IMG/VR virus record: IMGVR_UViG_3300043427_001127
Location: 96,001 to 160,000 of that record
Length of the DNA stretch: 64,000 nt
Direction: 5' to 3' (one strand)
DNA from: a virus
A program made the position numbers and the translations under genes. The notes below the pieces were generated by a model. It saw only the letters and a program-made list of their open reading frames with translations. It was not told the DNA's origin and made no database searches. Position 1 is the stretch's first letter, and every line of letters starts with the position of its first letter. Positions 20,152 through 64,000 of the stretch are shown in pieces.

Positions 20152-20183
20152 CTCTTTAACCTAAAAAACTAAGGAGAAACCTA

Positions 20184-20342
20184 ATGTCACAAGCAACCTA
20201 CAGAGGTTGTCAGTACAACACTGACGTACCTAAGCAAGAATATCAGCGTTGGTATTCACAAACTCATGCACCAGCACATCCACAGAATACATATCGTGGT
20301 GTTGCCTACCGTCCTTGTAAGAACTCGGAGGTAGCACAATGA
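20184..20342 (+). CDS. DUF4278-like small protein
   Basis: AAGGAG SD; two YRGxxY motifs, as typically found downstream of Downstream-peptide RNAs. Confidence 0.75.
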   Translation: MSQATYRGCQYNTDVPKQEYQRWYSQTHAPAHPQNTYRGVAYRPCKNSEVAQ

Positions 20343-20425
20343 ACTGGTTGAATCTAATCCGTAGACAGATTGAAAAACAAAAGAGACTAGAGATTGCCCA
20401 ATATCATATGGCAACTCTCGGATAA
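20339..20425 (+). CDS. 28-aa peptide MNWLNLIRRQIEKQKRLEIAQYHMATLG
   Basis: GGAGG SD, ATGA overlap. Confidence 0.6.
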   Translation: MNWLNLIRRQIEKQKRLEIAQYHMATLG

Positions 20426-20427
20426 AG

Positions 20428-20453
20428 CAAAGGGGGCATATGCCCCCTTTTTT
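20428..20453. terminator. bidirectional intrinsic terminator
   Basis: AAAGGGGGCA-ta-TGCCCCCTTTTT between convergent genes. Confidence 0.85.
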
Positions 20454-20619
20454 ATTTCCTTAGTGTATGTAAGTATTGAATCATTGCTTCCCTGATATAC
20501 ATTAGCTCGTGGTAGCATTTCTGATTGTGAGCACACTGCCTCAGTTCGTTGTCTGGTTTGTGTACGCTCTCAATAAACAAATCTAATCCTCTGTTCCATT
20601 TGTCGTTGTCTTCAGTCAC
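20452..20619 (-). CDS. hypothetical protein
   Basis: KWNRGLDLFIESVHKPDNELRQCAHNQKCY. Confidence 0.7.
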   Translation of the reverse strand: MTEDNDKWNRGLDLFIESVHKPDNELRQCAHNQKCYHELMYIREAMIQYLHTLRK

Positions 20620-39129: not shown

Positions 39130-39309
39130 ATGTTCCATGAAACTCTGGTGAACCATTACCAGTCTAACTTTAACTTGATGTATCATCATAAGTTTTCATT
39201 AACTGAGTTAGAGAACATGCTTCCGTGGGAAAGAATCGTTTATGTTACTATGCTTAATGCATATATCGAAGAACAAAACGAAAAAGCAAGACAGAAAGCA
39301 ATGCGATGA
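39130..39309 (+). CDS. gp51: baseplate hub assembly catalyst (T4 gp51-like)
   Basis: NF.LM.HHKFSLTELENMLPWER..Y; read manually. Confidence 0.85.
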   Translation: MFHETLVNHYQSNFNLMYHHKFSLTELENMLPWERIVYVTMLNAYIEEQNEKARQKAMR

Positions 39310-41987
39310 ATCCCGAAGACTTAGATTTAGATTTGCCACAACCACCCGAGGGAGTACTAGATCCTAGTAATCCTTGGTATAGTGCTAAGGTTGGCGAAAG
39401 GACATGGATGCTTCTTAAAGCCAAGTTAACTGGCAGGAAGATGAATGATGGCACACAGTATTCATCCACTGTTAATTTAACTGAAGCAGATGCTGATAAG
39501 TTAATAGAAAATCTAAAGAAAGATCCTAGAGGATATCCTCAGTTTAATGATGGGGGTGGTGGACTTAAGTTTTATGAAAACTATGAGGCATATCAAGGGT
39601 GGTTGGTAGAAGAGTATCTTGAGAAACCATTTCGCAAACAGGTTGACGCGAAGATAGAAGAAGCTGAGATACAAAGAGTAATAAATCAAAGAAAAGAATC
39701 AAAAGTTCAACCAATGACTCTTTTGATTCCTTCAAAAAAGGAAGAAGACCTTTTAAAAGTACCAGAAATAAAAGAAGAACCTGTTGAGGAACCTGAAGAA
39801 TCACCTCAAGAAACTATAACGGAACAACAAATACCAGAACCTGTTGCTGAACCACAAACAGAACCTGTGTCAGCATCGATACCTCTTCCTGCCACATCGC
39901 CACCAACATTTGATCCAACTAAGGTATTAAACATACCCGAAACTATTCCAGAAAAAGTTCCGAATGGATTAACACAAAACATAACAAAGTTATCCGAGAC
40001 TTTAGATAATATCAATGCAGAACTATCGGCACAGATTGTTCTGATAAGAAAAAGAACATCTATCTTAAAAAAAGATAATGCTGGATTAGAACTTGCCAAG
40101 TTTTTAGTTGGTCAACAAATAGAAAACTATAGTGAGTTCTTGAATGATTTGGAGTCGCAATCTAGAGAGATAGATTTAGAGGATGGATATGATATTCCTT
40201 CTGATGCCGAATCTAAACCTCCAGTAGACAATCAAGTAGAACCAGAAGGACCACCACCAACACCCGAAAAACCACCAGAAAAACAATGGTGGGAGTTCTG
40301 GAAAGAAGATCCAAATAAATCTCCAAGAAAAGCTTCTTCTGGATTGATGTCAACTGCGATGCCAGCAATGGCAGAAGGTGGTATATCAGCTGGAACTGGA
40401 CTGAATAACATCATTAAACCAGGAATATATGATAATCCTACGGTAGGTAATCTAGCACCAGGAACCGCTATCATACCATTGAATAGAAACTATGGTAAAG
40501 ATATGTTTGGTAACTATGATGAGATTGAATACATGAATGCTTTTGGGGAAGTAATGGCTTCGTCAAGAAAAGCATTACTTGGTTCTGTTCTGACAGTTTA
40601 TGGAGATATTCTCAGTAGTTTTGGACCACTAGCAGGATTTTTTAATAAATCTTTGCCTGGTATACTTCAAGGTGCTGCAAATATTTTGGGAGCACCATTA
40701 AATCTTGTTCTTGATATGCTTGGTGGACCAGCATATGCTGGTACTGTGCCAAATGAGTTGGAAGAAAGAAAGTTTTATAAATCTTGGAAGATTTATTTTG
40801 AAGGCAATCGTCTAATATTTGAAGGTGGTGTGCAAGAAGGAAGTTCTGAAGAAAACCCAACAGGAACTGCTGAGTTTGCAAAAGATATTTTAACTATTGG
40901 TCCTGGTGGCGAGGGTCTCGGTGGCATGGGTGGTACTAATGTGTCTAAACCACCAGCATGGATTCCATATGCTAAATCAGATTCTGGAAAACTCCATTAT
41001 ATTTCTGGATTTGGTTGGCGTTGGGGTAGAATGCACACTGGTATTGACTTGGCACCAGCTGGATATGCGCCATTAAAACTAATCTCTCCTTTTGACGGTA
41101 AAGTTTCTGATGTGAACAGAAACTGGCCTAAAGACGGCGGTGGTGGATATGGAAACTATGTTGAAGTAGAGCATAAAAATCCAAATGTTCATTTATTTTA
41201 TGGTCACATGAAAGAAGTTTCTGATAGTATAAACCAAGGATCTGATGTAAAAGCTGGGCAAGTTTTGGGAACTACAGGAACAACAGGTCGTTCTGAAGGA
41301 GTTCACGTACACTGGGAAGTTAGAAAAGGTAGTTGGGGGCAGCAGGTAGATCCAGTTGAATGGACTCATCAAAATAAACCAAGCTTTGCTAAAGGTGGAA
41401 GTTGGCAACTGCCATCGTTACCCAGTTTACTTCCATCACCTATTGATTTACTGAAAGGATTATTAAAGTCTAAACAATCTAAAAGAAACTATGGTGCTGA
41501 TTACAAAAGGCAAGAGTTGATACTTTCGGCAAAGGCTTCTGGTGGGAGTGGACTTGCAGATATTAGAGGCAATCAAAGACCAAGACTCCAACAGTCTGGT
41601 AGCATCAGTAGACCTAAAGGTTCTGTAGTAGTAAAACAAACAGAACCAGAAGTTCCAAAGTTAGATCCAAATCTAACAGCAATACAAAACTGGACTAAAC
41701 TATTTCCACAACTTGCTAGAAAAGTTAAACCAGGGCAGTCTGGATACGATGAGATTCAAAAAGTTTTATCACCACAAACTTCAACTATGCCATCAGCAAC
41801 TCCAACTACAACAGCAGTTGCTACAGAATCTAAAGTTCCACCAAAACAAATGACTATGCAGATGCCATCTGCACCTTCTACCCCCACTGTTACACCATCA
41901 TCTAGTGCATCTTCCGTTTCTTTTGTTCAACTTGATATGAATACTAATGATGTGAAAGAACTAGTAAAACTTCGTAGAATACAGTGA
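39306..41987 (+). CDS. tape-measure-like baseplate protein with M23 peptidase domain
   Basis: SGFGWRWGRMHTGIDL, GYGNYV, YGHM, TG.S.GVHVHWEV. Confidence 0.82.
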   Translation: MNPEDLDLDLPQPPEGVLDPSNPWYSAKVGERTWMLLKAKLTGRKMNDGTQYSSTVNLTEADADKLIENLKKDPRGYPQFNDGGGGLKFYENYEAYQGWLVEEYLEKPFRKQVDAKIEEAEIQRVINQRKESKVQPMTLLIPSKKEEDLLKVPEIKEEPVEEPEESPQETITEQQIPEPVAEPQTEPVSASIPLPATSPPTFDPTKVLNIPETIPEKVPNGLTQNITKLSETLDNINAELSAQIVLIRKRTSILKKDNAGLELAKFLVGQQIENYSEFLNDLESQSREIDLEDGYDIPSDAESKPPVDNQVEPEGPPPTPEKPPEKQWWEFWKEDPNKSPRKASSGLMSTAMPAMAEGGISAGTGLNNIIKPGIYDNPTVGNLAPGTAIIPLNRNYGKDMFGNYDEIEYMNAFGEVMASSRKALLGSVLTVYGDILSSFGPLAGFFNKSLPGILQGAANILGAPLNLVLDMLGGPAYAGTVPNELEERKFYKSWKIYFEGNRLIFEGGVQEGSSEENPTGTAEFAKDILTIGPGGEGLGGMGGTNVSKPPAWIPYAKSDSGKLHYISGFGWRWGRMHTGIDLAPAGYAPLKLISPFDGKVSDVNRNWPKDGGGGYGNYVEVEHKNPNVHLFYGHMKEVSDSINQGSDVKAGQVLGTTGTTGRSEGVHVHWEVRKGSWGQQVDPVEWTHQNKPSFAKGGSWQLPSLPSLLPSPIDLLKGLLKSKQSKRNYGADYKRQELILSAKASGGSGLADIRGNQRPRLQQSGSISRPKGSVVVKQTEPEVPKLDPNLTAIQNWTKLFPQLARKVKPGQSGYDEIQKVLSPQTSTMPSATPTTTAVATESKVPPKQMTMQMPSAPSTPTVTPSSSASSVSFVQLDMNTNDVKELVKLRRIQ

Positions 41988-44742: not shown

Positions 44743-47595
44743 ATGTCTTTTGGCATAGAGCAATCACAAAAAACAGGTGGTCAAACATTGGGAGGATTCA
44801 TAGCTGGCAAAGCTATGCAATCTAGAGATGATGCAAAAAAAGAAAAAGAAAAGCAACAAAAGATAGAAGAAAAGGGCGGCGAAGTAAACGAAGAAGACAA
44901 AAAGGGATTATTTAAAAAAGCTCTCGCTCATAACTTTGGTGGTGGATTTTTATCTGGTAAAAAATCTTTTGGCGAAAACTTTAACTATAAAATGCCACCC
45001 AAACCAGAATCATCTGGATCATCTTCTTCCGCGTCAGGTGCTGGTGGTGGATCTGGTGGTGCTGGAAAAGGACTAGCGAAGATTCTTACTGGAGGATTTG
45101 GTTCTCTGGTAGCAGATACTACGGCTATTCAGGGGGGTTTGTCTGCGATTACGCAACTATTAAACTCTCAGTTGCAGTCTAGTAGTTTCACTTCTAACGG
45201 TATATCTGGTATTCAGGCGATTTTAGCAGATCAACTTGAATCTCAAGGTCAGATGATAGAGTTGATGGGAGGCGAAAGACCATCTTCAAGTGCTGCTGCT
45301 GGCGCTTCTGGTATGTTTGGCATGTCCCAATCATCTAAAACTGGTGGCGAAACTTTAACTGGATTTATAGCAGAAAAATGGCAACAGATTCAGGGAGTTA
45401 TTAGTTTTGTTTCTGGATTGATGTCTGGTGGTGGTATAACTGGACTGATTGCAAGAATGCTTCCTGGTCCTGTTGCAAACATATTGGGTCTTGGTGGAGC
45501 GCAAGGAGCAGCTGCGGCAGGAGGTGGCGCTGCAGCGGGTGGTGGAGTTACTGCAGGAGCAGTTGCGACTGGTGCCGCTGCTACTGCCGCTGTTGCTGGT
45601 ACGGGACTTGCTGCTAGTGCTGTAGGCGAAGCAACAAGAGGTCTTGGAGATCAATGGAGAAACCTAGACAATAAAAAGAAAAAGGAAATTTTAAAGAATC
45701 CATTTTTGAATACATTTTTAATGATGCCGCCACTTACGCCAGTAGGTATTGCAGCACAGACTGGTATGATACCAGATCAGTTATTGGACATGACTGAAGA
45801 CCCTATTGCTCGCGTTTTGGATGGAAACTCTGCAATAGCAGAAACTATTGGAGCTCCATTTAGGGCAATATTTGAACTTATTATGGCTGGTGGTGATGTG
45901 AGTAAATCAAATGCCAAGATGGCAGAGATTGACGCAAACCTTCGTGAAAACTTCCGTCAAGCTTTTGATCCAAATGGAAAGAAAGGATCCTGGGGATCTG
46001 CATGGGGTAATGAATATGGCACTGCTGAGTCTAGAATAACAAAGAATGCATCTGGATCTGTGATGCTTGGGGAAGCGGGTAAAGAAGCAGTTGTAGATTT
46101 GCATAGTGCGGATGCTGCTGGCATGGAAGGCACTCAAGACCCTGGCATGAAGGCGTCTGGAGCATCTATGCTTGCTGTGGTTGACCAGTTTGTGAAAGGA
46201 ATGGGACCACTTGGAGCACCAGTTGCACAAGCATTGGGACCAGATGTTCAGAATCTTGCAAGACAGTTTGGTATGTCACAAACTCTACCAAACTTAAAAA
46301 TAGGTGGTGGTAAGTTCAAAGAGGATGGAAAATCAAGAAGAGAAAAAAACAAGTTTTTAGAGAATCTTATTTCTGGATCTTTAGAAGCATTAGGTGCTAA
46401 AAAGAAAGAGGATAAGCAGACAACGCCAGGTGGAGCTCCAGCTCCAACAGGAGACGCAAATCAACAAAGATCGCAAGAAAGACAAGAAGATACAAGACAA
46501 ACACTTGAAAGTATTCCTGGTGCTGGTGCTGCAATGGAAAGACCTGATCCAGAAGGCATTAAAAAAGCGGAAGGCGAACAAGCAATGATGACTACTGGTA
46601 AGGTGAAAGGAACTCAAGTTAAACTAGGTACTGGTGATAAATTAACTGTTCCTAGCGCAGATTTGAATCCTGTTGAAGGCAGTAACGGTAAGTATTGGTA
46701 TGATAACAAAGGACAGATATATAAATGGCGACCAGGGGAGCAAGTTGTACAACTATACTTAGACGAAATACAGAAGCAAGGAAAAGCTGATAGTTTTGAT
46801 TTGGTGAGGAATACAACAACTGGTGTTGTAAGAAGAGTCAGTACCCAAAGAGATTGGAATCCATTTAATAATGCCAGCATTATTAAAAATGGCGAATACA
46901 GTTATAGAGCAAATGATAAGTTGATTGATAATAGAAATGGAACACCAGTTTGGTCTAGACAAACTGAGAAACAAGATTTAGGTGGATTGCATGGACCAGA
47001 AATAGCAATACCAAAACAAAGTAGTTTAACTTCTTTTGAAGATGGTGGATGGTTCCAACGTCTCACAAGATGGTTGACAACTCCAATGGGTCAAGGCGCT
47101 TCTGATAAGGCAGTTTCTTCCCTGCAAAGATCTGCTAGTGCTGGAAATATGGGAAGCACTGCACAAGGTCTCAGTAATAGGAGAGCAGCAACTGATGCTG
47201 CCATTAGAGAAATGCTGGGTCATGAAAAGGGTGGTTCTATGTTTGGTGTTACTCAACATAACAAAATCACCATTGAACAAAGGATGGATGATATTGAGAA
47301 GATGACAAAAATGTTGGCTTCCATGGTTGGATCAACTACTAGTGCTGCTGGACCATCTTCTACTTCATCTGCTCCTAAGGTTTCTGCTCCAGCATCTCCA
47401 GTAACAGCAACAGATCAAGTTGCTGATGAGATGTCTGAAATGGCAGTTATTAATGTTATCCAATCTGGCGGTTCTTCTCCTACTATTCCAGTTGAGCAAG
47501 AATCACCTCAAAATAGTACAGATTATATTGCAGATCCCTCTTCTAGTGGTCTAGCTTCAGTTCTTTGTATGTCTTCACCTTGGGGGGCGATGTAA
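44743..47595 (+). CDS. tape-measure-like Gly/Ala-rich protein
   Basis: Low-complexity helical sequence; GEAGKEAVV motif; paralogous to the two upstream genes. Confidence 0.65.
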   Translation: MSFGIEQSQKTGGQTLGGFIAGKAMQSRDDAKKEKEKQQKIEEKGGEVNEEDKKGLFKKALAHNFGGGFLSGKKSFGENFNYKMPPKPESSGSSSSASGAGGGSGGAGKGLAKILTGGFGSLVADTTAIQGGLSAITQLLNSQLQSSSFTSNGISGIQAILADQLESQGQMIELMGGERPSSSAAAGASGMFGMSQSSKTGGETLTGFIAEKWQQIQGVISFVSGLMSGGGITGLIARMLPGPVANILGLGGAQGAAAAGGGAAAGGGVTAGAVATGAAATAAVAGTGLAASAVGEATRGLGDQWRNLDNKKKKEILKNPFLNTFLMMPPLTPVGIAAQTGMIPDQLLDMTEDPIARVLDGNSAIAETIGAPFRAIFELIMAGGDVSKSNAKMAEIDANLRENFRQAFDPNGKKGSWGSAWGNEYGTAESRITKNASGSVMLGEAGKEAVVDLHSADAAGMEGTQDPGMKASGASMLAVVDQFVKGMGPLGAPVAQALGPDVQNLARQFGMSQTLPNLKIGGGKFKEDGKSRREKNKFLENLISGSLEALGAKKKEDKQTTPGGAPAPTGDANQQRSQERQEDTRQTLESIPGAGAAMERPDPEGIKKAEGEQAMMTTGKVKGTQVKLGTGDKLTVPSADLNPVEGSNGKYWYDNKGQIYKWRPGEQVVQLYLDEIQKQGKADSFDLVRNTTTGVVRRVSTQRDWNPFNNASIIKNGEYSYRANDKLIDNRNGTPVWSRQTEKQDLGGLHGPEIAIPKQSSLTSFEDGGWFQRLTRWLTTPMGQGASDKAVSSLQRSASAGNMGSTAQGLSNRRAATDAAIREMLGHEKGGSMFGVTQHNKITIEQRMDDIEKMTKMLASMVGSTTSAAGPSSTSSAPKVSAPASPVTATDQVADEMSEMAVINVIQSGGSSPTIPVEQESPQNSTDYIADPSSSGLASVLCMSSPWGAM

Positions 47596-53713: not shown

Positions 53714-53786
53714 GCTGGTTTAGCTATCTGGTGAAAGCACCCGACTCATAATCGGATACAGGCGAGTTCGATCCTCGCAACCAGCA
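53714..53786 (+). tRNA. tRNA with CAT anticodon (elongator Met or Ile2)
   Basis: Cloverleaf, loop CTCATAA. Confidence 0.9.
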
Positions 53787-53829
53787 CTTGACAATCCGAG
53801 CAAACTCTGCTATGATTGTCTCATCACCT

Positions 53830-53913
53830 GGGGCGGTGGTGGAATCGGTAGACACACCAGACTTAAAATCTGTTGGGAGCAATCCCGTGAGAGTTCAAGT
53901 CTCTCTCGCCCTA
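53830..53913 (+). tRNA. tRNA-Leu(TAA), intronless
   Basis: Cloverleaf, loop CTTAAAA, long variable arm. Confidence 0.95.
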
Positions 53914-53945
53914 TCCCCACTAAATAATGTGTAGTGGGAAATGTT

Positions 53946-54212
53946 ATGAAATACACATTATCTCAAGCATATGTCTTTTATATGGGTGAGGTTGTGCGTA
54001 TGTATTTCATACAAGGTCTTCCTTATACATTTGATGAACTTCCTCAAATAGTACAAGACCATCCTTCAGTTCAATCAGAAGCTCTTTCTCATCGTGACTA
54101 CGATGACGAAGATATGTTTAACTGGTGCAACTATCTTGTTATGGAAGAAATGCACCCTTTAATGTTTGACATAGAAGTGGAAAACCCAGATTTACTCCCA
54201 AAAGACGAATAA
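53946..54212 (+). CDS. conserved hypothetical protein
   Basis: VRMYFIQGLPYTFDEL...YL..EE.HPL. Confidence 0.75.
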   Translation: MKYTLSQAYVFYMGEVVRMYFIQGLPYTFDELPQIVQDHPSVQSEALSHRDYDDEDMFNWCNYLVMEEMHPLMFDIEVENPDLLPKDE

Positions 54213-54213
54213 T

Positions 54214-54287
54214 GCCCTGATAGCTCAGCTGGATAGAGCAACGGTTTTGTAAACCGTAGGTCGTCGGTTCAAGTCCGACTCGGGGCT
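54214..54287 (+). tRNA. tRNA-Thr(TGT)
   Basis: Cloverleaf, loop TTTGTAA. Confidence 0.95.
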
Positions 54288-54311
54288 CTCCGTGTGAAGG
54301 AAGTCAAATCC

Positions 54312-54346
54312 AACCTGAGGTCTCCTCAGGTTTTTTTGTATAAATA
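54312..54346 (+). terminator. intrinsic terminator followed by T4 late promoter
   Basis: AACCTGAGG-tct-CCTCAGGTT-TTTTT, then TATAAATA at 54339-54346. Confidence 0.85.
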
Positions 54347-54384: not shown

Positions 54385-57300
54385 ATGCCATTAACGAGAT
54401 TAGATAATCTTATTTCAAGTAAAACTGGTAAATATCTTTATGTTTCACCTGATGATTATAATGCATCAGATGCGCTAGATAACAGAGGAAATACACCTTT
54501 AAGACCATTCGTAAGTATTCAACGTGCCTTCTTAGAAGTAGCTCGTTTTTCGTATCTACCTAATGTAGATAATGATAGATTTGACCAGTTTACCATTATG
54601 TTGGCACCTGGCAATCACTATATTGATAACCGTCCTGGTGTTGCAAATGTAGAAGATATTCCAACATTCCAATATAATGAGGCATTACAGCAGTGGGAAG
54701 CAAATGAAGATGTAAGTTTTGATCTTTCCGATCCAGATAATATTCTTTATCGTTTCAATGGTCGTGATGGTGGTGCTACGATTCCTAGAGGTACATCTCT
54801 TGTAGGTACAGACCTTCGTAGAACTCAGCTACGTGCTCTGTATGTTCCCGATCCTGCTGATAAAGATGTTCCTCGTTGTGCGCTGTTCAACGTAACAGGT
54901 GGTTGCTATTTCTGGCAGTTCACTATTCTTGATGGCGACCTTTCTTCAAACTCTCCTCTATACGACGGTACGGTAGGTCGCGTCTACACACAACCTAACG
55001 ATACTACAAACCGCCCAGTACCTGAGTTTTCACACCACAAGATTACAAACTTTGTTTTTGCTGATAGAGAAGATTTAGGTCTACTTTACAGAAAGATTGC
55101 AAAAGCTTTTGGTGACTATCAAGATACTATTGATGATGTATATGTAGAAGGTTCATCTACACCAGTAAGTAGTCAGTGGTCTGAAGATGTTACCTATAAC
55201 GTTGGTGATAGGATTATCTACAATGGAAACGCTTTTGTTGCTAATGCAGTTGTAACAGGCATCGACCCAGAATCGGATGATACTAAATGGACCAGACTTG
55301 TAATCCGTGGTAGAGAGTTTGACTACAGAGTACAGGAAAACAGAATCGTTGGTCCTCTATCTGATGCCGTGTTTATTGATAGCATCAAACTTATTGATGG
55401 TGTTGGAACTGATGTTGGTATTCTAACTCTTGAAGTTAGAACTAAGATTAATCATGGTTTCTTCCCTGGTCAATATGTTGCGGTAACAAATAACAATCTT
55501 AATAATGCTTTAAACGGTGTATTTGCTGTATACAATATCAGCACTAATGATCCTAAAGTCTTCTACTATCGTGTTCCGTTTACTGCACAAGGTCTAAACC
55601 TAACTTCGGGTGAGACATATACAGCTACTTCTACCATTCCTCTCAACCAGACTGCTACAGTTCAGGCAGAAGTTGACTCGGTAGAATCAGCATCACCATA
55701 CGTCTTCAACTGTTCGATTCGTTCTACATGGGGTATCTGTGGTATCTGGGCAGATGGTCGCAAGGCGACTGGTTTCAAGTCGATGGTTATCGCTCAGTAC
55801 ACTGGTGTTTCGCTACAGAGAGACGACCGTGCATTTATTCGTTATGATGAGTTTAGCAACACTTGGAACCAGGCACCTCTAACTGATGCATTTGCAACAA
55901 CTCCTTACCACATCAAGGGTGATGCATACTGGAAAGATGATTGGAGAAACTTCCACGTTCGTGCTTCGGATGACTCCTTCATTCAGAACGTTTCGATCTT
56001 CGCTGTAGGTTTCGCAGATCACTTCCTGCTTGAGTCTGGTGGTGACATGTCGATCACCAACTCCAACTCAAACTTCGGTAACACATCGATGCACTCGGTT
56101 GGTTACAAAGGATTCTCCTTTAACCAAGATAAGGGTGGATATATTACTGACATTATTCCTCCACAGGAACTTAAGACTTCCGACAAGTCTAAGCAGCAAT
56201 ATTATCCTATTCAGATTAACCTAACAAATGATGCCACAAACACAAGCAGAGTTTATCTTGCTGGTGATGCTGTAAAGGATCCTGAGAATCGCCCTGCTGC
56301 CTCTGTAAGTGGGTATAGAATCGGTGCCAGGGTAAATGAACAGATTAAGGTAAAACTTAATGCGGGTACTGGAGAATCTGGTCCTACGGAAAAGAGTGCG
56401 GTATTAAATCCTTCTGGATTTAAGAGATGGGCTACATCACTTACAACTCTAAATCCTGCTGGTGCTTCATTTACTACTGAATATAATCTACAACAAGATG
56501 CAGCAAATCTAATCGAAGCAAACCAAACGTTTATTCAATCTGAAGCATTTGGATATATCCTTGAGAAATATCCATATCTACAAAATATTTCGTATGTAAA
56601 CCCAAATATTACTTCCGAAACTGGTAGATATAGAGACGCTTCAAACCTGATCAAAGCAAATAGACAGGAAATCATTGATACAGCTTATAATGAAATGGTT
56701 ACTGCATTCCCTGGATTTGTGAATCCAGATGTAGTAAAATGTAAGAGAGATTTAGGATACATTATTGACGCTATTGCAAACGATCTTTATGATGGTGGAA
56801 ATGCTCATATTGTTGAAGCAACTCAATCATATTTTGGCAGTAACGGGCAAATCTTAAGCAACGGTTTGAGTGGAGAACAAACTCAATCTGTATTTGCTTT
56901 TAATCGCGTTAGGGATCTTTGTAAGTTAGCTATTGCTAACATGCTTTCATCTACAAGTTCTTTACAAGTTTCTTCTATCACTTCTAGTGGAACTACTGTA
57001 ACTGTAACTTGTTCTTCTCCGCATAACTTAACAGTTAACACAAAAATCAGTGTTATTGGTTTAAATCAATCTGCTTATAATGGTGATTTTACTGTTCTTT
57101 CTACTGGATTAACCGCAACACAGTTCCAGTATACTGCTCTATCTGCTCCTTCTGCCTCTCCTGCTACTGGAGTTTCATACATTTCCACGGTAACTATTGA
57201 TCAGGCAAACAGAACTACTCTTGCGGGTAAGTTAAAAAATGCAAGTGATCTAATCTTTGCTAACAAGCAGCAAATCGTAGATGCTGCTTATGTAAGTTCC

Positions 57301-60300
57301 ATTCCTTCAGATACGAATGGTACTAAGTGTAAGCGCGATATCGGTTATGTTGTTTCTGCAGTTGCGAACGATCTAAACTTTGGTGGTAACGAATACACTA
57401 TTGCTGCTATTAAAGAATATTTTAATGGCAATAGTTTACTATCAAATGGCGTACAGGGTGAAGTAACTCAAACTGTCGCAGCATTCAACAATGCTAGAGA
57501 GCAGTGTAAACTTGCAATCAACAACCAGTTGAATGTAAAAGATTTAACTATCAAACCAGATCCTGCAACAGGTTCTAACACTAGCGTAAACTCTTGTGCT
57601 GATGTTAAGAGTACAATCGATAACTTATTTGGATTGGTTACTACAACTCTCCAAGCTGGAAATCTAGATAATCTTGCAACAGTAAATAACGGTTTGTATG
57701 ACTGTGCTAATGTTAGAAGCACGATTGATACATTAAGTGCTATTCTGACAACTGCTATTTCTTCTGCTAGCCTCACTTCTGTTCCTGCTCCAAATCCAGG
57801 ATTATGGTCAAGAGTTTCTGAGAATAGCAAGTGTAAGAGAGATATTGGTTATATTGTGGAAGCAATCGTTGCTGACTTGAGACTTGGTGGAAATGTCAAT
57901 ACTGTTAATGCAGCAAAAGCTTACTATATTGGTGTAACACAAGATACTGATGGAGTGAATGATGGGTTTACTCTGGACTATATTGAAAATGAACTGAATG
58001 AAACTCTAGATGCATATAACTATGTGAGAGATTTGTGTATTTCTTCCATGAGAAATCACAACACTTACATGACAGTTAATACTGCAAACTCTTCATTAGT
58101 TACAGTTCCATCTACAGTGGGACTTGCAGTTGGAATGAAGGTTGTTGGTGTTAACAACATTCCTTCTACGACTGGTACTAGTGCTCTAACTAACTATAAT
58201 GATCAATATGAAGAGTTAGTTGATGGAAAAGTTGTACCCAAATCTTCAAACATTAGCACTGCGTACATTCCAGCAGATACCTACATCAAGAGAATCGTAA
58301 ACTCAACACAGATTGAACTTGGTGTTAGAGGTAGTAAACTAAACTATGGTACTACAAAGACTGCTGTTGCTGGAACAGGAGTAAAGGTATTCTTCCAACT
58401 TGAGGAAGGAATCTGGACATCATCTATTGGTCCTTCAGTAGATAATACAGTTATTCAAGATTATGTTTATAGTGGAAATGGCGAATGCTCTTCTGTTTAT
58501 ACCACTATTGGTAACTACTTTGGTATTATTTCTACCATTTTACAGAATGGTGTTAATGCTGTTACTGCAACCACTCCAACTGCTGATACTGCACTTCTTT
58601 CCCAAAGAGCTACTGCATTTACTCTTCAGGAGATTCAAGGCGAAAATCTTCTTGCTAACCCACATAATCTAGAGACGGGTACTCCAGTAAGACTTGTTCC
58701 TAGAGCAAAACCAGGATCTAATGTAGACAAGCGTTTAGTGCGTCTTCCAAAAGGATTCAGTACAAATACTAAGTATTATGTAATCGCTCCTGGTAGAAGA
58801 ACACAACCTTTCAACTATGCTACTGGCGATTTTGCCGCTGCCGATCAACAAAAGATTCTTCTTGCGACCAGTGAAGAGAATGCAGCAGCTGGTATCTATA
58901 TCTACTCTCCTGAAACGGAAAACATTAACGAAAATGTAATCATTGATGTTTATCAATACGTTCTTGATAATAGTTACGATCTACATCAGTATAAGACTAC
59001 TCTCTTCGATTCTACTACTTTCTTGACAGAATCTCCACATATTTTTGACATTCCTGTTAATGATGTTGGGGTAACACTTCAGAAAGTGTTCTTTAGAACA
59101 GGCAGCGATTTAGGTGCAAACTCTACGCTTCCAAATCCAGCTAATACTTATATCGGTTTGTTTAATGACACCACTGAGTATTATGTTAGATATTTTGATG
59201 ACGCCAGCGGTTCTTCGATTGCCAAGAAGTTCAAGATTTATTTGACGGCTCAAAATGCTATTAACAATGAAAACCCTGTAGAATTTTTTGAAAATAGTGG
59301 AACTACTTTTTACACATTTGCTAATAAAAAACGTGTTTCATTAAAGTTTGATCCGACAGTTGATATTGCTGATCTTCCAAAAGGAAGATGGTATTTAAAT
59401 ACAGTTGCTGATTCTTCTTCTGGAAATATTATCACTAGATTGAAGCAATCTGATTATAGTGATGATTCTGTTGGGAATAATGCAAAAACTTCTGATTCTT
59501 TCTTTGAAAGAGTAAATGATTTAAGAGACAAGCAAGATAGAGTTTATAGATTTAGATTTGTCATCCCTGCATACAGAGGTACTACAGTTAGAGATCCTCT
59601 AAATGGATTTGTATTTAAGATTAGAACTGACTCTAAGAGAAAACTATTACCACAGAAAATTCTTTTAAGACCAACTGGAAATGCAAGTGCATTTGCAACA
59701 TTTTATGCTTTAAACTCTGCTGGACAGCAAGTTAATGAAAAACTTGGTTGGACATATTCACAACTGAATGCCGCTGGATTTGATGATACTGTTTATGATC
59801 CATATCTAAATCCAGTTAAGATTCAAACTAACTCTAAGATTACTGCCAGCATTCAATCTGCCAGACAAAGAAGCATTAATGGAGTAAACTATCTTGAACT
59901 TACTGTCTTTGACCATGATGTTGACGCAGCATACAAAACAACAATCTTCACTACTGTAAAGATTACTGCACCTCAGGGTGGTAATGGAGCGTTTGAAGCA
60001 AGTTTAACTGACTTAGATTCTGATAACTTTATTGAGTGGGAAGGAGCTTGTTCTGGATCTGGATATGTACACGCATTCTTAAACTATGGAACAGAATATC
60101 ATCTGATTCTGAAGGGAATAACTGGTAACTCAACACTAGATTTTGACCCATTTGTGACAACTACCTTTAAGCAAGGATCAGTTTCTGCTGTCATGATGGA
60201 CGAACCTGACGGTGGTAGAACAGATAAAGAAAAAAATCTATATGCAGTTGAGGGTGCTAACGTTTATACATTAACACCAGGAGATATTGTAAAAGATTCT

Positions 60301-63300
60301 ACAAACGTAAGTTATACGATTGCGGAAGTAACTGATATTGAAGATTTAGAAGGAACTTATTATATCTTCTCTGTTGATACTATTCGCAGAAGAATTCCTA
60401 ACCAACAAGATGGTGTTTACTATCTAACTTGTGTGCGTGGTGATATTAGACCATTCCCTGTTGGATCTGGTGTTGGTGAAAACTTCAGAAACTTTAGATT
60501 CTCACAACCCATTTCTAAACTCTACCCTGAGTTCTATAAGAACGATCCTGAGTGGTATAGAGCACTTGATGATACTTTAAAAGATCCCCCAGAAACTATT
60601 TCTGCTGCGGATAACTATATTCATGGATTGGTTACAGTTAACGATTCCAAGAACTCTTTGACAAAAGAAACAGTCCTTGATTTCGTACAAGATTCTGGTT
60701 CTGGTGTATATTCGTTTACTGGAGATAATGTCATTCAGGCGCAGTCTGGACCTGCTTCTGCTGGATCTGAGACTAGAAGGATTCCTATTTCTGGTGATTC
60801 TGTATATCCTACAGAAAAGAGAGTTTATGTAGAACTTCGCAGACCTTCGATTGCAAGATCTGGCAACCACACGTTTGAATATCTTGGTTTTGGTCCTGGT
60901 AACTACTCCACAGGTTTCCCTGCGCGTCAGGAGATCGTTCTGACTGATGTTCAGGACTTCTATGCCCAAGCTAAGCGTGAAGACGCTGGTATCGTCTTCT
61001 ACACGGGTCTGAACTCCAATGGCGACCTTTATATTGGTAACAGAAAGATCAACGCTATTACTGGCGAAGAGACTTTCTTAGAATCTGCTGAACTTGTAGA
61101 ATCTGAGGATGAAGATGAAAGCCCAGCAACACTGGTAACTACTTTTGAAGTTCCAGTAACCTTCAAGGATATTATTACTGTTGAAGGATTTGACGGAACC
61201 AAGCAAAGTGTATTTACTTCTCCTGTATACTTCAACGTAAGAGTTCTTGATGATTTTGGTGGTCCTGTTGATCCAGCTATCACTGTTAAGACTAATATTG
61301 ATCCAACTAACGATGATAGTTATTTAAATATCACATCTTTGGGTCAAAAGACTGGCGATATTAAGATTGAGAAGAATAGTATCGCTTTGGGAATGTTGAG
61401 GATATATGCTCGTGGTGAGCAAGGATATACAATCAGAGCACATATTTCAAACAAAACTCCTGATCAGGCATCTCCTTTTGGCGGTGATATTACACAACCA
61501 TCTACTCAGATTATCAAGTTTGGTTCAAGAAATCCTGTTTCTGGTGATGTTCTTTTCAAGGGATCTCAAACAGATGTAACTGGCGCTGCTGGTTGGATTT
61601 TTGCAAATACCTACGCTGTTCTGTCTAAGACAGGCGACAGTGGTATTACAAATCCTCAGATTGCAAATATTCAAGGATTTGGTAGTGGTAATGTTATTCG
61701 TCTGAACTGGAACACTACTGGTTCTCCAGCTTGGACAAATAGTTTACTTGGCATCACTGAATCAACTCAGATTAAGATTGTCGGTGCTCAATCTCCAATC
61801 TCTCAGATCAATGGTATCTGGAGAGTAGTTAACACAGTTGCAAATCCATTCAGTTCTACTGCAAACTATCTTGATGTATCGCCATCTGAAGGCAATCAAA
61901 TCACGGTTGAGTCCAATCTTTACACTATAAGCACAGTTACTCAACCAAATATATCCATTTCTAAGAGTTCTACTTCTTGGAGAGAATGGGGAATCATTGG
62001 TTCTGAAGCTCTCAGAACAGAAACAGATTCTATTGGCAACTATAAACTAGGTGTTAATACTGTATCTCGTGCTCCACATAGCGCATATAACAATGCATTT
62101 ATTTCATTAGAAACAACTCCTAGAGCAAACTTAGATGTTGTTGGAACTGCATTCTTCAGTGGAAAAACTTTATCTACATCACCAAACAACTTCTTAGCAA
62201 ACTCTAACCCAACAAACAGAACATTTAGTGGTGTATCTAATGCGTTCTTGATTGGTGGTGATAGTGCTAATCCAGATAACGAGGCAACATTTAGATTATC
62301 TACTTCTACCAACAGAGTTGGTATTAATGTAACTAATGCTGAACTTGATAGAAGTTTAGTTATTGATGGTGATGGTAGAGTTACTGGAAACTTCAGATTC
62401 CAAGCGGATATTGAAGTCAATGGTGGAGACATTACAACAACTGTAACCACTGGATCATTTAACTTTGTTGAAGATAGCACTTTCACTGGTACTCTTAATA
62501 TTGGTAGCTATCCAGCAACCGTTAACTTTGCTGCTAGAGCAACCACACTTAATATTGCTAACACAACGACATCAACTCAAACGATTAATGTTGGTAATGC
62601 TGCAGCAAACCAGACCATAAACGTTGGCAATACTGGAACTGGTACACATGATGTAAATATTGCTACTGCTGCTACAGGAGCAACTACTTTAGATGTATTC
62701 AACTCTTCTGCCAATGTAAGAGTAGATATTGGCAATCCTTCTGCTTCTGCTACATCATCCAAGATTACTCTTGGTGGTGCTTATAATGCCAACGAATCTA
62801 ACAGTTACTTAGAAGTTAAAACTAAGTCTGCTAAGTTCTTTGGTGATATGCAGATTGGAACGAATAAGACTGTTTCTGATACTGTAACGCTCGGAACTGA
62901 TGCAGGAACCGTAAACTTCTTCTCTACATCTGGATCTGCCTCTACCATTTCATTTGGATTAAATGCTTCTGTATTGAATATTGGCGGTCAGGGTGGAACA
63001 ACCACAGTAAGAAACAGTTTGACTGTGGACGCTTCGCTGCTTGTCAAGAACAATATCACTCTTGATGGTGGTACTGCTACATTCTCATTCAATGGAAACA
63101 GAGCATCTCTTGGATCTACCATTGCTTCTCACACTGGTTTTCCAACAACCGTCCCAGTTGATAAGAATGTTGACCTAGTTACTATTGTCAGTGGTTTTGA
63201 TAACGTTGTTGATACAGCTGGTGCTGGTGATTGGGGTGGAACTTTCTTCCAACAAGCGATTCCAACATATACAGGAAATGACGGAACTGCTCTAGGTGCT

Positions 63301-64000
63301 CTATCTGGAAACCAATACTACTTACCACTTGAAAATTCACCAACTTACTTGGAAGGTTATGATATTTTAATCGATACCGTTGTTGGTGGTACGAGACATC
63401 CTGAGATTGTTAGAGTTGCATCTGGTGGATTAAGAAGAACCACAACTGCTCCATACTATATTATTGTTGAGAGACAACCATATGGTACTTTCTTGCCAAT
63501 AAAAACAAATCACACTGATGGAACTGCCACAAAACGAGTTAATGTTGCATTAGATTCCACATGGTTGACTGCTAACGTTGACGGTAGTGGCACCTCAGAT
63601 GTCTTCAGTCTTTCTGAGTTTGGTGGAACTCTAGCATCAGGTGATTATATTTTTGTTGATAGAAATAGCACTGGAACTTCTGGTGAAGCAGTAAAGATTA
63701 CTTCTTCTACAGGATCAGTTGCACAAAAACTAATCGTTACTGATGGTGCTGGATCTACTACTTTTGAAGTTGATTCAACAGATGGTCATACAGTTGTAAG
63801 TAACTCAACTGCTCTCGGTGGACTAGATGTATATGGTCCATTCAACCTCATCAGTTCTTGTTCTGCAACCTCTGCTAACAGACTATTCTCGCTTAAGAAT
63901 AGTTCTTCAAATACCACATGGTCGGTTGACATGTGTAATGGAGAGACTACTATTACACAGGGAACATTAACTACTGATGTAAATGTTCTTGATGCCACTG
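54385..64000 (+). CDS. giant virion structural / tail-fiber-like protein (>3200 aa, runs off the window)
   Basis: Starts MPLTRLDNLISSKTGKYLYVSPDD..RPF.SIQRAFLE. The frame-1 stretches I translated have no stop, and its absence from the ORF track fits no stop before the window end. Beta-helix-like region, CBM-like motif, phycobiliprotein-like repeats. Confidence 0.9.
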   Translation, partial: MPLTRLDNLISSKTGKYLYVSPDDYNASDALDNRGNTPLRPFVSIQRAFLEVARFSYLPNVDNDRFDQFTIMLAPGNHYIDNRPGVANVEDIPTFQYNEALQQWEANEDVSFDLSDPDNILYRFNGRDGGATIPRGTSLVGTDLRRTQLRALYVPDPADKDVPRCALFNVTGGCYFWQFTILDGDLSSNSPLYDGTVGRVYTQPNDTTNRPVPEFSHHKITNFVFADREDLGLLYRKIAKAFGDYQDTIDDVYVEGSSTPVSSQWSEDVTYNVGDRIIYNGNAFVANAVVTGIDPESDDTKWTRLVIRGREFDYRVQENRIVGPLSDAVFIDSIKLIDGVGTDVGILTLEVRTKINHGFFPGQYVAVTNNNLNNALNGVFAVYNISTNDPKVFYYRVPFTAQGLNLTSGETYTATSTIPLNQTATVQAEVDSVESASPYVFNCSIRSTWGICGIWADGRKATGFKSMVIAQYTGVSLQRDDRAFIRYDEFSNTWNQAPLTDAFATTPYHIKGDAYWKDDWRNFHVRASDDSFIQNVSIFAVGFADHFLLESGGDMSITNSNSNFGNTSMHSVGYKGFSFNQDKGGYITDIIPPQELKTSDKSKQQYYPIQINLTNDATNTSRVYLAGDAVKDPENRPAASVSGYRIGARVNEQIKVKLNAGTGESGPTEKSAVLNPSGFKRWATSLTTLNPAGASFTTEYNLQQDAANLIEANQTFIQSEAFGYILEKYPYLQNISYVNPNITSETGRYRDASNLIKANRQEIIDTAYNEMVTAFPGFVNPDVVKCKRDLGYIIDAIANDLYDGGNAHIVEATQSYFGSNGQILSNGLSGEQTQSVFAFNRVRDLCKLAIANMLSSTSSLQVSSITSSGTTVTVTCSSPHNLTVNTKISVIGLNQSAYNGDFTVLSTGLTATQFQYTALSAPSASPATGVSYISTVTIDQANRTTLAGKLKNASDLIFANKQQIVDAAYVSSIPSDTNGTKCKRDIGYVVSAVANDLNFGGNEYTIAAIKEYFNGNSLLSNGVQGEVTQTVAAFNNAREQCKLAINNQLNVKDLTIKPDPATGSNTSVNSCADVKSTIDNLFGLVTTTLQAGNLDNLATVNNGLYDCANVRSTIDTLSAILTTAISSASLTSVPAPNPGLWSRVSENSKCKRDIGYIVEAIVADLRLGGNVNTVNAAKAYYIGVTQDTDGVNDGFTLDYIENELNETLDAYNYVRDLCISSMRNHNTYMTVNTANSSLVTVPSTVGLAVGMKVVGVNNIPSTTGTSALTNYNDQYEELVDGKVVPKSSNISTAYIPADTYIKRIVNSTQIELGVRGSKLNYGTTKTAVAGTGVKVFFQLEEGIWTSSIGPSVDNTVIQDYVYSGNGECSSVYTTIGNYFGIISTILQNGVNAVTATTPTADTALLSQRATAFTLQEIQGENLLANPHNLETGTPVRLVPRAKPGSNVDKRLVRLPKGFSTNTKYYVIAPGRRTQPFNYATGDFAAADQQKILLATSEENAAAGIYIYSPETENINENVIIDVYQYVLDNSYDLHQYKTTLFDSTTFLTESPHIFDIPVNDVGVTLQKVFFRTGSDLGANSTLPNPANTYIGLFNDTTEYYVRYFDDASGSSIAKKFKIYLTAQNAINNENPVEFFENSGTTFYTFANKKRVSLKFDPTVDIADLPKGRWYLNTVADSSSGNIITRLKQSDYSDDSVGNNAKTSDSFFERVNDLRDKQDRVYRFRFVIPAYRGTTVRDPLNGFVFKIRTDSKRKLLPQKILLRPTGNASAFATFYALNSAGQQVNEKLGWTYSQLNAAGFDDTVYDPYLNPVKIQTNSKITASIQSARQRSINGVNYLELTVFDHDVDAAYKTTIFTTVKITAPQGGNGAFEASLTDLDSDNFIEWEGACSGSGYVHAFLNYGTEYHLILKGITGNSTLDFDPFVTTTFKQGSVSAVMMDEPDGGRTDKEKNLYAVEGANVYTLTPGDIVKDSTNVSYTIAEVTDIEDLEGTYYIFSVDTIRRRIPNQQDGVYYLTCVRGDIRPFPVGSGVGENFRNFRFSQPISKLYPEFYKNDPEWYRALDDTLKDPPETISAADNYIHGLVTVNDSKNSLTKETVLDFVQDSGSGVYSFTGDNVIQAQSGPASAGSETRRIPISGDSVYPTEKRVYVELRRPSIARSGNHTFEYLGFGPGNYSTGFPARQEIVLTDVQDFYAQAKREDAGIVFYTGLNSNGDLYIGNRKINAITGEETFLESAELVESEDEDESPATLVTTFEVPVTFKDIITVEGFDGTKQSVFTSPVYFNVRVLDDFGGPVDPAITVKTNIDPTNDDSYLNITSLGQKTGDIKIEKNSIALGMLRIYARGEQGYTIRAHISNKTPDQASPFGGDITQPSTQIIKFGSRNPVSGDVLFKGSQTDVTGAAGWIFANTYAVLSKTGDSGITNPQIANIQGFGSGNVIRLNWNTTGSPAWTNSLLGITESTQIKIVGAQSPISQINGIWRVVNTVANPFSSTANYLDVSPSEGNQITVESNLYTISTVTQPNISISKSSTSWREWGIIGSEALRTETDSIGNYKLGVNTVSRAPHSAYNNAFISLETTPRANLDVVGTAFFSGKTLSTSPNNFLANSNPTNRTFSGVSNAFLIGGDSANPDNEATFRLSTSTNRVGINVTNAELDRSLVIDGDGRVTGNFRFQADIEVNGGDITTTVTTGSFNFVEDSTFTGTLNIGSYPATVNFAARATTLNIANTTTSTQTINVGNAAANQTINVGNTGTGTHDVNIATAATGATTLDVFNSSANVRVDIGNPSASATSSKITLGGAYNANESNSYLEVKTKSAKFFGDMQIGTNKTVSDTVTLGTDAGTVNFFSTSGSASTISFGLNASVLNIGGQGGTTTVRNSLTVDASLLVKNNITLDGGTATFSFNGNRASLGSTIASHTGFPTTVPVDKNVDLVTIVSGFDNVVDTAGAGDWGGTFFQQAIPTYTGNDGTALGALSGNQYYLPLENSPTYLEGYDILIDTVVGGTRHPEIVRVASGGLRRTTTAPYYIIVERQPYGTFLPIKTNHTDGTATKRVNVALDSTWLTANVDGSGTSDVFSLSEFGGTLASGDYIFVDRNSTGTSGEAVKITSSTGSVAQKLIVTDGAGSTTFEVDSTDGHTVVSNSTALGGLDVYGPFNLISSCSATSANRLFSLKNSSSNTTWSVDMCNGETTITQGTLTTDVNVLDAT

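Follow-up and report, generated by a model that had tools for sequence, protein, structure and literature searches.

We found that a giant tail-fibre-like protein encoded in the window (the whole stretch of 64,000 nucleotides analysed here, positions 96,001 to 160,000 of the virus record IMGVR_UViG_3300043427_001127) carries three units that are, with near certainty, diverged members of the phycobiliprotein (PBP) superfamily, homologous to the light-harvesting PBPs of the host. These beta-subunit-like modules of globin fold serve to build up a giant tail-fibre protein that is expressed late. The open reading frame (ORF; plus strand, frame 1, 54385..63999) starts at 54385 and continues past the window end, so that 3205 of the 3497 aa encoded in the genome fall within the window. 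In PHROGs, its residues 1-659 matched phrog_529 (tail fiber, E 7e-290) and residues 1391-3101 matched phrog_4527 (short tail fiber, E 0), making it a member of the giant tail-fibre/baseplate proteins of T4-like cyanophages (PHROG 4527, 529, 5342 and 701); its homologues in S-H9-1, S-CAM4, S-PM2, S-RSM4 and further phages carry a tail fibre or structural protein annotation. None of these fibre protein annotations mentions a PBP-like module, and representative module proteins are unnamed or just called 'hypothetical protein'. A T4-type late promoter, TATAAATA, lies at 54339..54346 on the plus strand, 39 nt 5' of the ORF's ATG, and a hairpin followed by a T-run (about 54314-54337) stands just 5' of the promoter. 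Because this octamer occurs 7 times in the window versus 3.9 times expected, it is weak evidence by itself, and it is the position that counts. The genes upstream of the giant ORF encode the tail tube, the baseplate hub and a gp5-like hub/lysozyme. Annotated-family homology, late signal and baseplate/tail neighbourhood together place it among the tail-fibre or giant structural proteins, in agreement with the late-promoter structural protein proposed by a sequence-only reading of this DNA.

That reading had also suggested that the units are phycobiliprotein-like, which was borne out by sequence profiles, profile-profile comparison and template-free folding; on these three grounds we assign the units as PBP-fold domains. 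The Pfam profile PF00502 matched unit 1 at 20.9-22.0 bits (E 2e-4), just below the curated gathering cut-off of 22.2 bits, in an alignment that spans profile positions 33-84 only and stops exactly at the Cys. Outside this ORF, the genome has another fibre gene, which scored 20.4 bits against the same part of PF00502. The reverse tests were positive. When a profile of 46 phage units was compared with all PDB sequences, the best match (E 3.2e-5) was a PBP, and all 60 among the matches listed, out of 118 at E<=10, were PBPs; hhalign against 220 cyanobacterial PBPs gave a probability of 95.6% (P 1.3e-8). Since the PF00502 score is sub-threshold and the reverse tests are positive, the module is, judged by its sequence, a distant PBP relative outside the curated family boundary.

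The template-free AlphaFold (AF2) model of unit 2, the uninterrupted unit for which the sequence-only reading had proposed a fold comparison, was predicted with a pLDDT of 88.3 and a pTM of 0.86 and contains helices A, B, E, F', G and H of the globin-like PBP fold. VIA superposed model residues 8-153 on residues 32-177 of PBP beta chains with Z 17.0 and an rmsd of 2.1 A over 131 residues. Foldseek returned PBPs or PBP-derived proteins throughout the matches listed, to rank 50, at E-values of only 1e-3 to 2e-2. In an unfiltered VIA search of 48,161 chains, PBP-family proteins took ranks 1-8 (Z 15.4-12.4), led by the bilin-binding domain of ApcE (PDB 4xxi, Z 15.4), and the next fold scored Z 11.0. 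Globin sensor domains, either cofactor-free or haem-containing (RsbR N-domain, globin-coupled sensors), use the same superfold as a sensing module (Z 8-11), but their scores are clearly lower than those of PBPs, they do not have the Cys-Arg-Asp triad, and they were absent from the matches listed for the 46-unit profile in the PDB. A chance or convergent likeness of helical repeats, with no common ancestry, would fit the identity of only 12-24% between phage units and PBPs, the Pfam score under the cut-off and the modest Foldseek E-values. We consider it scarcely credible, given four independent lines that lead only to PBPs (hhalign, the profile run against the PDB, the Z 17 match of the template-free fold, and the VIA search without a filter) and given the shared register of both attachment cysteines, the helix-A/B Asn and a Tyr ahead of helix G.

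The phage unit also departs from PBPs. The N-terminal X-Y hairpin, through which PBP beta subunits form alpha-beta heterodimers and rings, is absent from unit 2: in the VIA superposition nothing in the unit corresponds to PBP residues 1-23, the best-fitting alignments (rmsd about 2 A) beginning at PBP residue 32 and looser ones reaching residue 24. An extra helix-A/B-like hairpin (plus strand, 56494..56595, residues 704-737), after which the Cys core is absent, might take its place; S-PM2, Syn1 and S-RSM4 contain comparable partial matches, to profile positions 2-48. Assembly into (alpha-beta)3 discs or phycobilisomes is unlikely for a module that has no X-Y hairpin and is embedded in a fibre protein, and so is the phycobilisome mimicry that had been suggested from the sequence. 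In addition, the B-E loop is ~10 residues shorter than in PBPs; the loss of this stretch, which in beta subunits contains the propionate-binding residues Asn72 and Arg77/78, counts against bilin binding.

The ORF contains exactly three C-K-R-D motifs, at Cys786 (56740), Cys982 (57328) and Cys1150 (57832), and three closing helices capped by Cys1071 (57595), Cys1107 (57703) and Cys1368 (58486), all at the positions first reported for them; the helix-A motifs claimed alongside are likewise present. All of the following features are on the plus strand. The core of unit 1 (helices A to G, 56617..56958) carries Cys786, the beta-Cys82 equivalent, followed by Lys-Arg-Asp. After its helix G, an AF2 model of residues 738-1135 places an inserted beta-strand domain (56968..57186; strands at model residues 125-197, pLDDT 73-95) that has no match in Pfam. 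Unit 2 (57196..57672) alone is contiguous and complete, with Cys982 as its beta-Cys82 equivalent and Cys1071 capping helix H as the beta-Cys153/158 equivalent. The next helix (57703..57765), capped by Cys1107, fits the helix-H consensus and, from its sequence, may be the closing helix of unit 1, so that unit 2 would be nested inside unit 1. The profile can also align this helix with helix A, as the start of unit 3, and with an AF2 pLDDT of just 54-70 there its assignment to unit 1 is tentative. The core of unit 3 (57700..58074) has Cys1150 as its beta-Cys82 equivalent, again followed by Lys-Arg-Asp, and is separated by an insert of ~135 residues between helices G and H (58075..58479, no match in Pfam) from its closing helix (58480..58548), where Cys1368 lies in a G-E-C-S motif similar to the G-D-C-S of beta subunits. 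Each unit has one more Cys, in helix G (56920, 57505 and 58036), which is not conserved: it occurs in 34% of close relatives and about 5% of the wider family. To the original two-Cys description these results add the third Cys, the extra hairpin and the inserted domains that break up units 1 and 3.

Both cysteines occupy the registers of bilin-attachment sites, as had been claimed, in profile-profile and structural comparisons alike. In the hhalign alignment with beta subunits, the first Cys falls on beta-Cys82 and the second on G-D-C153-S, and the helix-A/B Asn and the Tyr before helix G are further conserved positions in register. In the VIA alignment, the second Cys stands 19 residues before the last aligned residue, the same distance that PC-beta (153 of 172) and PE-beta (158 of 177) show. 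This second attachment Cys before helix H (153/155/158 equivalent) is present in all three units, with Cys1107 counted for unit 1, and the Arg-Asp after the first Cys, singled out earlier as contacting the bilin, is kept as C-K-R-D in 3/3. The closest known proteins are the PBP beta subunits (CpcB, CpeB/MpeB and cryptophyte beta chains; PF00502), with which the modules have about 15-20% identity and share the globin-like fold of helices A-H (rmsd about 2 A, Z 15-17), a helix E that opens with Cys-x-Arg-Asp and a second, helix-H-capping Cys in a G-(D/E)-C-S-like motif. Beta subunits are free proteins of 17-20 kDa that bear bilin, whereas the phage modules are embedded, repeated and insert-interrupted in giant virion proteins and are known here from sequence and predicted fold.

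We examined conservation in 150 representative proteins, from which copies were picked without a motif criterion. In the 1463 copies spanning the site, the Cys was kept in 97.9%, Arg+2 in 94.8% and Asp+3 in 99.2%, as the idea of a bilin site had called for. When the Cys is missing (29 of 1421 copies in the representatives), Arg drops to 52% and Asp to 66%, and the structural Asp+14 and Asn+20 are unchanged. The second Cys is all-or-none by protein, being found in every copy of 38 proteins and in zero copies of 50. It also co-varies with the equivalent of beta-Asp39, which is Asp in 96% of copies when the second Cys is present versus 11% when it is absent (n=236; raw counts, kinship ignored); most two-Cys copies thus keep this beta-subunit residue. 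In the window only unit 1 has the Asp, units 2 and 3 carrying Asn and Ser, respectively, which counts against a bound bilin. Taken together, the chromophore-site residues are under very strong, coupled constraint across the module family.

Such invariant cysteines could also form structural disulfides that cross-link the extracellular fibre, within a unit or between units or chains. Virions are exposed to oxidising seawater, the cysteines come two by two in the window units, and disulfide networks are known from phage tails (PMC10811340). We nevertheless judge this explanation improbable. In the one-Cys subfamily, 699 copies from 50 proteins, the first Cys is conserved at 98% and the domain has no other conserved Cys, so an intradomain disulfide cannot explain the conservation, and the coupled Arg and Asp are left unexplained. 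Moreover, the superposition puts the two cysteines at separate chromophore sites of the PBP-beta scaffold, where the beta-Cys82 and beta-Cys153/158 sites are presumably far apart.

The module is found in cyanophages: 354 of 355 records among the named tblastn matches are Synechococcus or Prochlorococcus phages, and one is named only 'Marine'. Giant module proteins, where named, are cyanomyovirus fibre or structural proteins, and those on environmental contigs carry up to about 35 repeats each. Among 17 reference cyanomyoviruses, cpeT was present in 12/14 module-bearing versus 0/3 module-less genomes (2x2 counts 12, 2, 0 and 3; one-sided Fisher p 0.015, kinship ignored); a single lineage may account for all three module-less genomes. 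In S-PM2, Syn1 and S-RSM4, cpeT lies directly upstream of a module-bearing giant gene. Support for the proposal that the modules are substrates of a phage T-type lyase is mixed. In its favour, cpeT never occurs without the module in the 17 genomes and adjoins a giant gene in three phages. Against it, the genome studied here, S-ShM2 and P-SSM7 have two-Cys modules without cpeT, and P-SSM4 encodes a CpeT-family protein, and also a bilin reductase, although neither Cys is left in its modules; the fold must therefore also have a bilin-independent structural role. The lack of cpeT, pcyA, pebS and ho1 noted for the window extends to the rest of the genome (CheckV estimate 90% complete), where genes for CpeT, CpeS, bilin reductase and haem oxygenase are all missing, which counts against bilin binding.

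The modules might instead act inside the cell as a sink or decoy, taking up bilins or engaging host lyases or phycobilisome partners in late infection, with any virion pigment incidental. Bilins and lyases abound in the cytoplasm where the protein is produced, and phage bilin genes are usually taken as host-metabolism genes (PMC2984593; PMC10452541). This reading is very improbable in our estimation, as the modules are embedded in fibre/baseplate-type structural proteins behind a late promoter, alpha-beta pairing is impossible without the X-Y helices, and bilin-reductase genes do not track the module, being present without it in P-SSM2 and S-SSM7.

Whether the modules still bind bilin is, in our view, evenly poised, attachment being predicted from the conserved sites. 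The main competing explanation is that a PBP fold captured long ago now serves the fibre only as a rigid spacer or bead of helices, without bilin, and that Cys-x-Arg-Asp serves folding or stability, another small ligand or host-surface contact. We lean against this explanation while granting it real plausibility. The fold survives Cys loss (P-SSM4, some P-RSM4 copies and the 29 representative copies above), the module lacks the X-Y hairpin and part of the B-E loop, the genome has no bilin genes, and cofactor-free globin-fold sensor domains exist (RsbR type, Z 11.0 versus the unit 2 model). Our literature search turned up no account of cyanophage particles that are coloured or autofluorescent, and we know of none. 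Hard to explain without a ligand, on the other hand, are the 98-99% conservation of the exact PBP chromophore triad over copies at <50% identity, the joint relaxation of the triad upon Cys loss and the all-or-none second Cys coupled to the beta-Asp39 equivalent; to our knowledge, known PBP-family members that keep the first Cys bind bilin.

The fibre is made late in an infected cyanobacterium, amid free bilins and S/T-type lyases. If the modules do bind bilin, one would become thioether-linked to Cys786, Cys982 and Cys1150, with Arg+2 holding its propionate and Asp+3 its pyrrole nitrogens. A second bilin could be attached to the Cys153 equivalents Cys1071, Cys1107 and Cys1368, for up to six per fibre chain. 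Attachment might rely on a lyase of the host, or on the T-type enzyme of the phage where it encodes one, or be autocatalytic as in ApcE. ApcE attaches its own bilin without a lyase and is therefore a precedent for chromophorylation in a genome without lyase genes. Like the phage fibre, it holds a PBP domain, interrupted by a loop insertion, inside a large multidomain protein; it differs in being a host phycobilisome protein with a single PBP domain followed by linker repeats and with its Cys at another position. Because alpha-beta rings cannot form without X-Y helices, the modules would be monomeric pigmented beads along the fibre.

Light absorbed by such bilins could then change the conformation of the fibre and gate adsorption. 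alpha-Phycoerythrocyanin is a photochromic PBP whose bilin photoisomerises and alters the protein, and a light-sensing use of the phage module, though speculative, would by analogy resemble this and other bilin photoreceptors. P-HM1 and P-HM2 have 5 modules each with every cysteine kept, and no module was found in P-SSM2 or P-SSP7. This agrees in the four phages with light-dependent adsorption, since adsorption in the dark is absent for P-HM1 and P-HM2 and present for P-SSM2 and P-SSP7 (PMC6628666). That the modules of the free virion carry covalent bilin, act as a photoreceptor and light-gate adsorption nonetheless seems to us rather unlikely. Our literature search found no paper on PBP-like modules in a cyanophage fibre. 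With true PBP relatives that hold pigment-attachment residues now located in the fibre, virion pigment and light sensing have become testable. If light gating is true, the cyanomyovirus particle would itself control adsorption by light, and phage cpeT, pebS, pcyA and ho1 would gain a role in building the virion beside their assumed role in host metabolism.

The module lies in a giant tail-fibre-like ORF that begins at 54385 in frame 1 and runs past the end of the window, with 3205 aa inside the window and 3497 aa in the genome, a 171,625-base IMG/VR virus contig (window, bases 96001-160000) with a CheckV completeness estimate of 90%. The sequence-only reading had taken its product for a structural protein under a late promoter, and this description was borne out: a T4-type late promoter (TATAAATA, 54339-54346) stands 5' of the ORF, and PHROGs assigned residues 1-659 to a tail-fibre family and residues 1391-3101 to one named 'short tail fiber'. 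Genes for the tail tube, the baseplate hub and a gp5-like hub/lysozyme stand upstream. A hairpin with a T-run (about 54314-54337) lies between the late promoter and a Thr-TGT tRNA, which belongs to a trio (Met-CAT, Leu-TAA, Thr-TGT; 53714-54288) just 5' of the fibre gene. Megablast of the flagged region found no match among 50,697 phage records and therefore marks a distinct lineage; for the same reason, relatives were reached by tblastn, which matched 355 phage records, all the named ones being Synechococcus or Prochlorococcus phages, in genes annotated as tail fibre, tail protein or structural protein. We also observed a weak, sub-cut-off match (21 bits) to the carbohydrate-binding module CBM_5_12 in the N-terminal part of the fibre protein (55174-55239, residues 264-285). 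In the tail gene block, an 893-aa ORF (39306-41987) carries a central M23-type metallopeptidase/endolysin-like domain (residues about 560-690) and may be a tail-associated cell-wall hydrolase, and a 950-aa ORF between tail genes (44743-47595) had no PHROG match at E<=1e-5.

Phycobiliproteins (PBPs) are the antenna proteins of cyanobacteria, red algae and cryptophytes. Three stretches of the fibre ORF had been likened to them by eye, both bilin-attachment cysteines included, and this likeness was supported by profile searches, profile-profile alignment and structure prediction. The Pfam family PF00502 matched unit 1 at 20.9-22.0 bits, just below the 22.2 cut-off, in a match that stops at the Cys, and the same portion of the model matched the unit in a second fibre gene at 20.4 bits. 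We gathered 80 related IMG/VR loci, extracted the units by HMM and aligned 46 contiguous ones (alignment A2). Searched against all 177,635 distinct PDB sequences, the A2 profile matched 118 at E<=10; all 60 of those listed were phycobiliproteins (best E 3.2e-5), and the alignment paired the phage Cys with alpha-Cys84/beta-Cys82. Comparison by hhalign with PBP alignments made from 120 cyanobacterial PBP loci gave 95.6% probability (P 1.3e-8) over helices A to E, and against beta subunits alone it extended over 127 columns, bringing the two phage cysteines into register with beta-Cys82 and the G-D-C153-S motif. A global-mode comparison with mixed alpha and beta PBPs was dropped, its C-terminal half being misaligned; the beta-only profile aligned cleanly at full length.

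A template-free AlphaFold2 (AF2) model made with phage sequences only (pLDDT 88.3, pTM 0.86) adopted the PBP fold. Structural alignment with VIA-align superposed model residues 8-153 onto residues 32-177 of the beta chain (Z 17.0, rmsd 2.1 A, 131/159 residues). Foldseek against the PDB returned PBPs or PBP-derived proteins throughout the listed matches to rank 50 with marginal E-values (1e-3 to 2e-2), and for this reason we base the fold assignment on the VIA Z-scores and on the uniform identity of those listed matches. When 48,161 chains were searched independently of Foldseek, the PBP family occupied ranks 1-8 (ApcE 15.4, phycoerythrin 15.1), and the best non-PBP fold was an RsbR-type globin with a score of 11.0. 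The second Cys stands 19 residues ahead of the last aligned residue of the VIA-align model, a spacing identical to that in phycocyanin beta (172 residues, Cys153) and phycoerythrin beta (177 residues, Cys158). Compared with PBPs, the phage unit lacks the N-terminal X-Y hairpin and has a B-E loop about 10 residues shorter. Together, these results make it almost certain that the module is homologous to phycobiliproteins, with both attachment-site registers kept. No earlier publication on the module was found in a literature search, most subscription journals lying beyond its coverage.

All three C-K-R-D copies seen beforehand are present in the giant ORF, at Cys786, Cys982 and Cys1150 (nt 56740, 57328 and 57832), and the three closing-helix cysteines were confirmed as helix caps at nt 57595, 57703 and 58486. 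Unit 2 (57196-57672) is the sole contiguous unit of the three; a beta-strand insert comes after unit 1, and about 135 inserted residues separate the closing helix of unit 3 from its core. From the order along the ORF (core 1, core 2, helix H, helix H, core 3, helix H), the G-H loop of unit 1 may house unit 2, in which case the helix capped by Cys1107 would close unit 1. An AF2 model of residues 738-1135 had a pLDDT of 79 overall but only 54-70 for this Cys1107 helix, and unit 2 dominated the matches when this model was used in a fold search. A fourth two-Cys unit, which is contiguous, lies outside the window in a 1696-aa tail-fibre-like ORF (phrog_5342; contig about 26849-31939); its beta-Asp39 equivalent is Asp, its closing motif is G-D-C-S, and it is without the helix-G Cys. 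In the units of the window, this helix-G Cys is a third one; it was considered as a disulfide partner and was ruled out by its lack of conservation.

The A2 profile detected 1348 representative proteins (50%-identity clusters) at E<=1e-3, and most of those listed run to thousands of residues, a single protein containing as many as 35 matched stretches. The representatives that we looked up are nameless or bear only 'hypothetical protein', and their cluster names give no function; the BFVD matches to the module are cyanophage fibre or structural proteins. In two environmental proteins, P0010 (6382 aa) and P0011 (5984 aa), 34-35 matched module stretches fill most of the chain. Because the 80 IMG/VR loci were motif-seeded, site conservation was counted on the 150 best of the 1348 representatives, chosen without the motif. 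The first Cys was found in 97.9% of their 1463 site-covering copies, conserved as the bilin-site proposal had called for, together with Arg at +2 (94.8%) and Asp at +3 (99.2%). In the 29 Cys-less copies, Arg dropped to 52% and Asp to 66%, with the invariant Asp at +14 and Asn at +20 unchanged; judged by this joint relaxation, the Cys-Arg-Asp triad therefore behaves as a single functional unit.

The second Cys is all-or-none: in the 94 proteins for which three or more copies extend to helix H, it is present in every copy of 38 and in no copy of 50. This split between two-Cys and one-Cys types recalls that between beta and alpha/allophycocyanin subunits. Since the one-Cys type has no further conserved Cys (mean 1.18 Cys per copy), an intradomain disulfide cannot be what keeps the first Cys conserved. 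Contigs carrying the one-Cys type reach 183 kb. In beta subunits, Asp39 holds the bilin at Cys153/155; its equivalent by hhalign is Asp in 96% of 85 copies with the second Cys versus 11% of 151 without it, counts that ignore relatedness and may largely reflect two clades. Here this residue is Asp in unit 1 and in the second-gene unit, Asn in unit 2 and Ser in unit 3.

Because the constraint on the site is coupled, it is reasonable to suppose that the modules bind bilin, a reading that we hold to be evenly balanced. Its main rival, which we consider somewhat improbable, is a structural module that carries no pigment and uses the conserved triad for something else; as the Cys-less copies show, the fold remains usable when the site is lost. 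Two-Cys copies occur in all examined module-bearing marine reference phages (n=14) but P-SSM4. In the P-SSM4 modules (NC_006884, about 70560-75689), which are natural 'apo' variants, both cysteines and most Arg-Asp pairs are gone, and those of P-RSM4 show partial loss of cysteines/Arg-Asp.

No genes for CpeT (T-type bilin lyase), CpeS (S-type), a ferredoxin-dependent bilin reductase or haem oxygenase were found in the genome (CheckV 90% complete), so that the absence reported earlier for the window extends to the whole available genome. Given such a gene content, bilin and lyase would have to be supplied by the host, or attachment would be autocatalytic. We searched 17 complete reference cyanomyoviruses for the module, a CpeT-family ORF and a bilin reductase. 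Module and CpeT-family ORF occurred together in 12, the module without cpeT in two (S-ShM2, P-SSM7), neither in three (P-SSM2, S-SM2 and S-SSM7, module-negative even at E<=1 and with PF00502) and cpeT without the module in none (one-sided Fisher p 0.015, although the three negatives may be related). In phages of three different genera, full-length cpeT lies directly 5' of the giant module gene on the same strand (S-PM2, 163961-164470; Syn1, 19950-20462; S-RSM4, 176535-177038); other phages have a shorter CpeT-family ORF distant from the giant gene. Bilin reductase genes do not track the module in these 17 genomes. The proposal that the module is the substrate of the phage lyase met with mixed results. 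It is favoured by cpeT never occurring without the module and by its position in the three phages; against a simple lyase-substrate link, P-SSM4 has a CpeT-family ORF, yet its modules are Cys-less, and the prediction that cpeT-less genomes would be without the second Cys failed, as those genomes have two-Cys modules. In the biochemical work of Gasper et al. 2017 on the phage lyase, PEB was reportedly not handed straight from the lyase complex to the beta subunit of the host, a point that we leave out of this weighing.

It has been reported (PMC6628666) that dark adsorption is absent in P-HM1 and P-HM2 and present in P-SSM2 and the podovirus P-SSP7; the same source puts the light requirement of several cyanomyoviruses down to unknown changes affecting either the receptor or the tail fibres. 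Five modules, none missing a cysteine, were counted in each of P-HM1 and P-HM2, and no module was found in P-SSM2 or P-SSP7. This pattern fits the prediction of a photoreceptor, four phages amounting to an anecdote. That a bilin renders the fibre light-sensitive is speculative, and we regard it as unlikely.

A large unannotated branch of the PBP superfamily in virus particles, with 1348 representative proteins and up to about 35 copies per protein, is unexpected. The module opens three questions to testing: why several cyanomyoviruses need light to adsorb, what the true target of the phage T-type lyase is, and why bilin-synthesis genes occur in phages of Prochlorococcus, which has no phycobilisomes. 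To our knowledge, no pigmented, possibly light-sensing virion has been known before; if bilin is bound, the module would provide the first, and would yield a family of bilin-binding scaffolds that are small and monomeric. Should the module carry no bilin, it would still be a clear recruitment of a host photosynthesis fold as a structural brick of a virus.
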